From the NCBI RefSeq assembly GCF_003334385.1, contig NZ_QOWN01000067.1: a DNA stretch of 10,916 nt; one strand, 5' to 3'. Origin of the DNA: Escherichia coli (GTDB lineage: Bacteria > Pseudomonadota > Gammaproteobacteria > Enterobacterales > Enterobacteriaceae). Shown piece after piece: positions 2,166 to 3,057 of the stretch; within the stretch, counting starts at the first letter, position 1, and each line of letters begins with the position of its first letter. Under the pieces are notes generated by a model that did no database searches, was not told the DNA's origin, and saw nothing but the letters and a program-made list of their open reading frames with translations. Made by a program: the position numbers and the translations under genes.

Positions 2166-2693
2166 ACAGACTACTTGAAGGGAGCCGCGGTCGCCTGGCA
2201 GTTGCAGTAGCAGGAGATCATCCAGCCGCAGTACAGATCACGATGACTCTGGTTAATGATACCGGCTTTGACCCCGTATTTTCCGGCTCTATCGCTGAAT
2301 CATGGCGTCAGCAGCCGTGCACACCATCCTATTGTTGTGACTGGGAGGCTGCCACCATGCTTCGCGCTTTCCCTCTGGCGAAAAAGGGAGAAGGACGGGC
2401 CCGTCTGCCTTCACTTTATGCCAGCTTCGGTAAGCTGGGTGAGACACCGACTCATGAAGATATCATTGATAACAATCGATCCATCAACTGGCCTGTATAA
2501 CGTGGCTGCCGGTGATTAAGAAAGCTGCACCTACCTAAGTAGTAGCAAACGCACACTTTTTAGAAAAATCGATGGTCAGAAACTGGATTAGCAATTCCGT
2601 TCCAGGGTTGCTTTTGATTTACGTTGGCGTCTGATCATTGATTTATCCTCAAAAGCCCAACCTCATTGGTAATGAACCAGCTCCGTGAATGTC

Positions 2694-2719
2694 CGCTCTG
2701 GCACAGAGCGAAATTTTTT
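2694..2719 (+). terminator. Candidate intrinsic terminator (plus strand)
   Basis: Perfect 7-bp stem 'cgctctg' (2694-2700) / 'cagagcg' (2704-2710) with 3-nt loop 'gca', followed by 'aaatttttt'. The T-run is offset from the stem by 3 A, so it is suboptimal. Confidence 0.35.
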
Positions 2720-2976
2720 GATCTCCCCCCCTGAAATCTAAACTTAGTCATGTCACGTTTTTGGGTTTCTAAAATTTTAACTTCGCGTTTTTCGTTGCCG
2801 TAAGGGTTATACAGAAATGTCCGTTAAGCAGAGTTCAAAATTGATTGCTGTGATCACGACTGGTTTGAAAGCCGCGCCCAAGCCTGTACAGCTCTGGTTT
2901 GCGTTGATTATGAACCTGTCAGCCTAAAGCAAGCGGATGGACGATGAGTATTGGTAATCTTTCAGAGTCCGGAAAA

Positions 2977-2995
2977 GTTCAGCCCCAGTCTGAAC
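2977..2995 (-). terminator. Weak candidate terminator downstream of fecE
   Basis: Minus strand reads GTTCAG-ACTGGGG-CTGAAC followed by TTTTCC, about 60 nt after the fecE stop. The stem is only 6 bp and AT-rich; a 10-bp palindrome 'ctggcgccag' lies just upstream at 3003-3012. Confidence 0.25.
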
Positions 2996-3057
2996 AGGCT
3001 TGCTGGCGCCAGTCCAGTTTCATTCAGTCGTGGTTTGGTTCTTACGGCCTGTGCAAT

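Follow-up and report, generated by a model that had tools for sequence, protein, structure and literature searches.

The spacer between an IS3-family element and fecE is very probably a mosaic scar

The DNA between an IS3-family element and the fecE gene of Escherichia coli (positions 2166-3057 of the window, the whole 10,916-nucleotide stretch of contig NZ_QOWN01000067.1 analyzed here) is very probably a non-functional mosaic scar, left by successive insertion-sequence events beside the fec operon. Comparison with related sequences divided it into the 3′ part and flank of a truncated oxidoreductase gene, a short junction piece, orphan non-coding DNA, a small remnant of a transposase gene and the fec operon's native tail (Table 1). 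The spacer is ordinary, with no sign of a new gene or RNA, and its yjhV pseudogene is already annotated.

Table 1. Features of the spacer and its borders, in window coordinates
Feature	Position	Strand	Remarks
IS3-family element, right end	2100-2168	+	End of K-12 IS911B-1 (4509801) corresponds to 2168; PGAP name ISEc52-like
yjhV pseudogene (b4286)	2169-2500	+	K-12 4509804-4510133 corresponds to 2171-2500
85-aa open reading frame (ORF), WP_000177057.1	ATG 2243 to stop ending 2500	+	PGAP coding sequence; begins MTLVNDTGFDPVFSGSIAESWRQQ; product MTLVNDTGFDPVFSGSIAESWR
Downstream flank of truncated oxidoreductase gene	2501-2684	+	Continuous Raoultella homology over 2169-2684
Junction piece	2685-2727	+	Hairpin 2694-2710, T6, start of C run (2725-2731)
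Orphan non-coding DNA	2728-2833	n/a	Old downstream flank of the fec module; matches fec locus L026
ISNCY-family (ISKpn21-like) transposase gene scrap, 25 codons	2834-2908	+	Residues 147-171 of 467
Native fec operon tail	~2902-3057	minus	Directly downstream of the fecE stop codon
fecE	3058-3825	minus	K-12 start 4510690
fecIRABCDE		minus	

The window contains the E. coli fec locus, whose K-12 counterpart lies in the KpLE2 region; IS30, IS600 and IS911-type elements are nested upstream in both the window and the K-12 annotation. Positions 2100-3100 were identical to E. coli ATCC 8739 and 99.5% identical to the yjhV locus of K-12 MG1655 (four substitutions and one indel), and the position between IS911B-1 and fecE, the stop codon and the IS junction were all the same as in K-12. 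The K-12 annotation leaves 556 bp without a feature between yjhV and fecE. The stop codon of the IS3-family transposase pseudogene occupies 2158-2160. Because the element itself extends to 2168, the start given to the spacer in the original prediction (2166) was two bases early, while the boundary on the fecE side was placed correctly.

The spacer had been described as AT-richer than the fec genes. Its computed GC content was 48.3% over the whole of 2166-3057, compared with 54.0% for fecE and 58.5% for fecD-fecI. The description applied to the low part, 2501-2833 (44.0% and 41.6%, the latter for 2685-2833), but not to the part that carries the ORF (2169-2500), which at 53.3% matched fecE closely. 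The spacer had also been said to hold no recognisable gene on either strand, and here the existing annotation showed otherwise, with the K-12 pseudogene yjhV at 2171-2500 and the PGAP call WP_000177057.1 at 2243-2500. Three origins had been offered: a decayed gene remnant, a small RNA region, or junk from IS-mediated rearrangement. Our comparisons support the first and third together, the remnants being the truncated oxidoreductase gene (2169-2500) and the transposase scrap (2834-2908) and the rest consisting of flanks and orphan DNA. The blastn and blastx comparisons returned a clear match to a decayed fragment of a known gene, an outcome that the original prediction had itself named as counting against it. 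The small-RNA option was not supported: Rfam gave no match, four alleles showed no convincing covariation, and the part next to fecE did not fold with unusual stability. The search of Rfam 15 over 1900-3300 with an E-value threshold, which had been proposed as a check, returned only a spurious plant miRNA model (21.7 bits against a gathering score of 107; E = 0.4). Searches of PHROGs, PADLOC and NCBIfam with the yjhV fragment and six small ORFs from both strands also gave no match.

In E. coli BKQ37E, the annotation shows the ISEc52-like transposase pseudogene that precedes yjhV as one frameshifted feature, at least 1.06 kb long because the stretch examined starts within it, and places no IS30 or IS600 feature inside it. 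The IS30 and IS600 insertions of the window and K-12 may therefore be later events.

yjhV appears to be the 3′ end of an oxidoreductase gene

The homologies of the 2169-2500 segment mark it as what is left of a 248-codon gene for an F420_oxidored-type NAD(P)-dependent oxidoreductase, of which about 107 codons at the 3′ end survive. When the reading frame that starts from the IS end was used as a protein query, the hits carried the names 'predicted dinucleotide-binding enzyme', '3-hydroxyisobutyrate dehydrogenase, partial' and 'arogenate dehydrogenase [Raoultella terrigena]'. At the DNA level, a Raoultella terrigena chromosome aligned to 2169-2684 with 85.4% identity over 520 columns (blastn), and this homology began at 2169, exactly at the IS boundary. 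An intact 248-aa protein encoded on a Pantoea agglomerans plasmid (WP_191938883.1) matched the fragment over its residues 142-248 (79% identity, E = 3e-64, blastx), and both end at the same stop codon. In both relatives a divergent regulator gene adjoins the oxidoreductase gene; in Raoultella its product matches the HxlR family, and in Pantoea it has a helix-turn-helix annotation. Among the matches listed in a genome-contig search with the fragment, only distant relatives with 41-54% identity were present, and neither a donor lineage nor a source for 2685-2727 was found.

Within the F420_oxidored family (PF03807; the NpdG/COG2085-like 'predicted dinucleotide-binding enzymes'), the closest group is the 248-aa subgroup encoded beside a divergent helix-turn-helix gene. 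In contrast to these proteins, the window keeps only the C-terminal 43%, and both the Rossmann domain with its GxGxxG motif (MKIGVIGTGNIGG) and the regulator gene are gone. The fragment has no full-length frame of about 248 codons and starts at residue ~140 of the intact protein, and the NADP-binding domain PF03807, which spans residues 2-93 of the Pantoea protein, is wholly missing. The yjhV fragment alone gave no significant match in Pfam and none in NCBIfam; distant structural relatives of the intact oxidoreductase in the PDB are 4huj, STEAP3 (2vns) and the F420:NADP oxidoreductase 5n2i. With only the C-terminal 43% left and no Rossmann domain, the fragment would be unable to act as an oxidoreductase. 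For WP_000177057.1, the name given by PGAP differs between genomes, being either 'hypothetical protein' or 'NAD(P)-binding domain-containing protein'. The latter name is wrong for the 85-aa product and inherited from the family, because the fragment lacks the domain at residues 2-93.

The 85-aa ORF from the ATG at 2243 to the stop at 2500 is present as originally predicted, which raises the question of whether the C-terminal domain has been kept as a functional small protein with a new role. We consider this highly improbable. The ORF is uninterrupted in most E. coli copies (a cluster of 511 sequences) and PGAP calls it as a coding sequence, but an intact ORF at ≥99% identity says nothing about selection, and frameshifted variants of the fragment exist in the database (P0017 and P0035). 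Analysis of the 15 bases 5′ of the ATG revealed no Shine-Dalgarno-like motif. A promoter scan found no promoter upstream of the ATG; the sole promoter-like site (2439-2466) lies within the ORF and is at chance level. In a small sample of E. coli alleles, nonsynonymous changes made up five of the seven distinct differences found in the yjhV fragment, compared with none of five in fecE, where all were synonymous; this contrast fits neutral drift of the fragment as a pseudogene. The entire dinucleotide-binding domain is missing, as noted above, and the K-12 curators also give yjhV pseudogene status. A cross-link between YjhV and AceF, reported once in a proteome-wide cross-linking mass-spectrometry preprint (bioRxiv 10.1101/2022.09.20.508727), is the sole and weak hint of expression. 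yjhV is listed with fec in mastitis pan-genome studies (PMC7750360, PMC11390585) and is statistically associated with mastitis strains (PMC11390585); however, this association is what linkage to fec would give, and the fec genes are equally associated.

Relative to K-12 yjhV, the window carries two nonsynonymous differences, P to L at 2175 and V to I at 2237. At both positions the state in the window is derived, because K-12 and Raoultella share the other state.

Several further features of the yjhV region were observed. The yjhV frame is open upstream to an ATG at 2087 within the IS, giving a 137-aa chimeric ORF (2087-2500), and this chimeric form is frequent in databases (cluster P0003, 366 members). 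The closest full-length relative, in Raoultella terrigena (GCA_901420665.1, 6001-6760), has three single-base indels compared with the window, so that a 181-aa product is called and the remainder is out of frame; either a genuine pseudogene or an error in the assembly could explain this. In the Klebsiella quasipneumoniae plasmid pKA1-2, the fragment carries a 6-nt in-frame insertion (TAGCAG) at the equivalent of 2207. The same plasmid has a truncated fecE followed by aph(6)-Id and aph(3'')-Ib, indicating that the block has entered a resistance region. The 14-nt sequence CGTGGCTGCCGGTG is present twice as an exact direct repeat, at 2501-2514 just past the yjhV stop and at 8523-8536 inside fecA, probably by chance. 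yjhV also serves as a neighbour label in a promoter survey (PMC3946193); the constitutive promoter published there for the insM-yjhV spacer (CTGTCA-16-TATAAA) was rejected for this locus, as the sequence is absent from the window.

The oxidoreductase flank ends at a junction piece with a terminator-like hairpin

The DNA directly beyond yjhV is the native flank of the oxidoreductase gene, since it is still collinear with Raoultella. Within it lie a hairpin that weakly resembles a terminator and ends in a T-rich tail (2590-2612) and a long, imperfect inverted repeat (~2566-2644); the fold of 2501-2760 had a z-score of -2.0. Homology to Raoultella ceases at 2684, and homology to the fec locus L026 ceases at 2728. 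For the DNA between 2685 and 2833 no source gene or element was found: plasmid and phage searches with 2680-2836 and 2501-2905 returned only copies of the same locus, plus ISKpn21-like matches to the scrap.

The junction piece contains the two features that had been predicted there, a hairpin with a T run at 2694-2719 and a C7 homopolymer at 2725-2731. The length of the C run varies between strains: K-12 and several other assemblies have C6, the window and ATCC 8739 have C7, and pKA1-2 has C8; this variation could reflect slippage or sequencing error.

The hairpin (2694-2710) is followed on the plus strand by AAATTTTTT, to 2719. One reading is that it acts as a selected, working plus-strand terminator, which would protect the convergent fec operon by stopping antisense transcription that reads through from yjhV and the IS cluster. 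We regard this as rather unlikely on the evidence from the sequence. The site fits the intrinsic-terminator consensus, with a 7-bp GC-rich stem of five G-C pairs (-10.6 kcal/mol, z = -2.0), a T6 run and the tail AAATTTTTTG, and it lies in the right place and orientation between convergent units. Unlike typical intrinsic terminators, it has a spacer of three A residues between the stem and the T run, and it adjoins no intact gene whose transcript it could terminate. Moreover, the number of terminator-like sites in 2100-3200 was at chance level (3 compared with 1.2 ± 1.0 in shuffled sequences; the excess is not significant). One assembly carries a one-base T deletion in the run, and the piece has no homologue beyond this locus against which its conservation could be assessed. 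The searchable part of the Term-seq supplements contained no fecE or yjhV entries.

An ISNCY transposase scrap and orphan DNA adjoin the native fec tail

Analysis of the next segment revealed a remnant of an ISNCY-family transposase gene. The scrap was 81% identical to ISKpn21 over 80 nt (blastn), and its translation, FKIDCCDHDWFESRAQACTALVCVD, aligned to IQIDGCDHDWFEGRGPACTALVYVD with 72% identity (E = 3e-9, blastx); a second ISNCY copy supports this identity. More than 1000 plasmids matched 2838-2916 only, each time within the transposase gene of ISKpn21 or related ISNCY elements. The likeness is limited to 75 nt, or 25 residues (72% at the amino acid and 81% at the nucleotide level), so that in contrast to an ISNCY element only 5% of the ~467-codon DDE transposase gene is left, and the segment is a scrap and not an element. 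The flanks of the ISKpn21 and pJH51 transposase genes, where the ends of such an element would lie, gave no significant match in the window. No relevant inverted repeat that could represent the termini of an ISNCY element was found in the window, and a within-window repeat search revealed only short matches at chance level.

The scrap and the orphan DNA have a counterpart in fec locus L026, in which FecE is 89% identical at the amino acid level. Over 2728-2923, which covers both, the two loci were 76.7% identical, compared with 79.7% at the third codon positions of fecE in the same pair, which indicates neutral evolution of this segment. In L026 the scrap is interrupted by an in-frame stop of its own. 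From this shared arrangement, the scrap and orphan DNA would already have joined the fec module before the lineages of the window and L026 split. L026 comes from GCA_050311775.1 (position 2816), labelled Erwinia amylovora, and keeps the scrap and orphan DNA with an 86-nt deletion in the fec tail. Its label or the origin of the contig may be doubtful, because 89% FecE identity is unexpectedly high for Erwinia amylovora.

The tail that follows fecE is shared more widely. It meets the scrap within a shared GTTGAT at ~2902-2912. From the fecE stop to ~2902, it was 77-80% identical to the fec loci of a Salmonella plasmid, a Klebsiella variicola plasmid and a Kluyvera chromosome, and past that point each lineage has other DNA, mostly an IS element. 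The third codon positions of fecE in these pairs were 51-64% identical, so some constraint on the tail is likely. In addition, the first 48 nt past the fecE stop were ~92% identical to L026, compared with 79.7% at third positions, and the block GCTGACAGGTTCA was invariant in five lineages.

These values bear on whether the tail is a functional 3′ untranslated element of the fecABCDE mRNA, namely a terminator, a stability element or a 3′-derived small RNA encoded on the minus strand. The greater conservation of the tail than of fecE third positions, the first 48 nt and the unchanged block all speak for it, yet we consider it improbable overall. Alignable intergenic DNA commonly seems more conserved than silent sites. 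The Rfam search gave no match, a minus-strand hairpin with a U-tract was not found in the tail, and the predicted fold was no more stable than that of shuffled sequences (z = +1.0). RNAalifold analysis, with four allele classes only, gave a covariation term of +1; double changes affected 3 of the 33 pairs, none of them convincingly compensatory. In addition, L026 has lost 2924-3009, and the tail is absent or shortened in a Klebsiella plasmid (L025), in a locus whose FecE is named for Citrobacter species (L027) and in Enterobacter (L029). There is a correspondingly small chance that ~50-156 nt past fecE form a functional fec element kept across Escherichia, Kluyvera, Salmonella and Klebsiella modules despite IS turnover beyond them.

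Three candidate features in the tail were examined and rejected. A plus-strand 41-aa ORF (2944-3069) has lost its ATG in Salmonella and is frameshifted by a 1-nt indel in Salmonella and K. variicola, and a minus-strand 14-aa ORF after fecE differs in start and frame in the alignments of other alleles. A possible second oxidoreductase scrap on the minus strand (WRQQACS compared with WRQQPCT) covers seven residues (E = 0.2), and the longer flanks from Salmonella and Klebsiella contained nothing comparable.

The fecE genes carried by the Salmonella and K. variicola plasmids are mosaic: third-position identity is 41-53% over the 5′ half but rises to 84-100% over the 3′ half and flank. This pattern indicates a recent recombination tract ending inside fecE. 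The high flank identity of this pair is no evidence of constraint, because the 3′ half of fecE is part of that recent shared tract.

The spacer travels with the fec module

We also examined the distribution of the block among E. coli genomes. This fecE allele was present in 2737 of 5426 complete genomes, and 2733 of the 2737 carriers kept most of a 2600-3500 query, nearly all at ≥99% identity. A comparison of the junction in fec-positive genomes, as originally proposed, revealed that the junction between the IS3-family element and yjhV is kept in 2673 genomes. A few plasmids of E. coli and Klebsiella also carry the block. Set against K-12 and BKQ37E, the two most informative comparisons, the spacer had about twice as many differences per base as fecE. 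The uniformity of the spacer reflects shared descent and the recent spread of one module and is not a sign that selection acts on it. Because the block moves together with fecIRABCDE as one unit, it is present at ≥99% identity in about half of the complete E. coli genomes.

Discussion

The homologies described above suggest an order of events. First, a fec module with its native tail (~2902-3057) would already have borne the decayed ISNCY scrap and orphan DNA (2728-2908). This block would then have been joined, at 2685-2727, to the 3′ part and flank of an unrelated oxidoreductase gene (2169-2684), for which the nearest relative found is in Raoultella terrigena. Finally, the IS3-family element ending at 2168 may have removed or displaced the 5′ 140 codons, including the whole NADP-binding Rossmann domain; the outcome would be the yjhV pseudogene with its 85-aa residual ORF. 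The homologies themselves are observed; the order of events is inferred.

Some observations run against a wholly non-functional scar. The tail exceeds the silent sites of fecE in conservation, which makes some constraint there likely; the 85-aa ORF is intact in most copies; the YjhV-AceF cross-link has been reported; and 2685-2833 has no traced source. Any residual activity is most likely passive. The hairpin and its T6 run (2694-2719) may block read-through transcription that comes from the IS side and would otherwise enter fecE in the antisense direction, and the first part of the fec tail may form the 3′ end of the fec mRNA. The residual question, and the one remaining point of interest, is a functional 3′ element in the first 50-150 nt after fecE.

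Overall, the spacer is of little biological importance. Signals in association studies that mark yjhV as 'virulence-associated' or 'mastitis-associated' are what hitch-hiking with fec would lead one to expect, and are not a pointer to a function of yjhV. Taken together, the mosaic records the history of the fec module, with a Raoultella gene fragment and an ISKpn21-like scrap as the nearest relatives of its parts, and the E. coli fec module has spread as a single recent unit.
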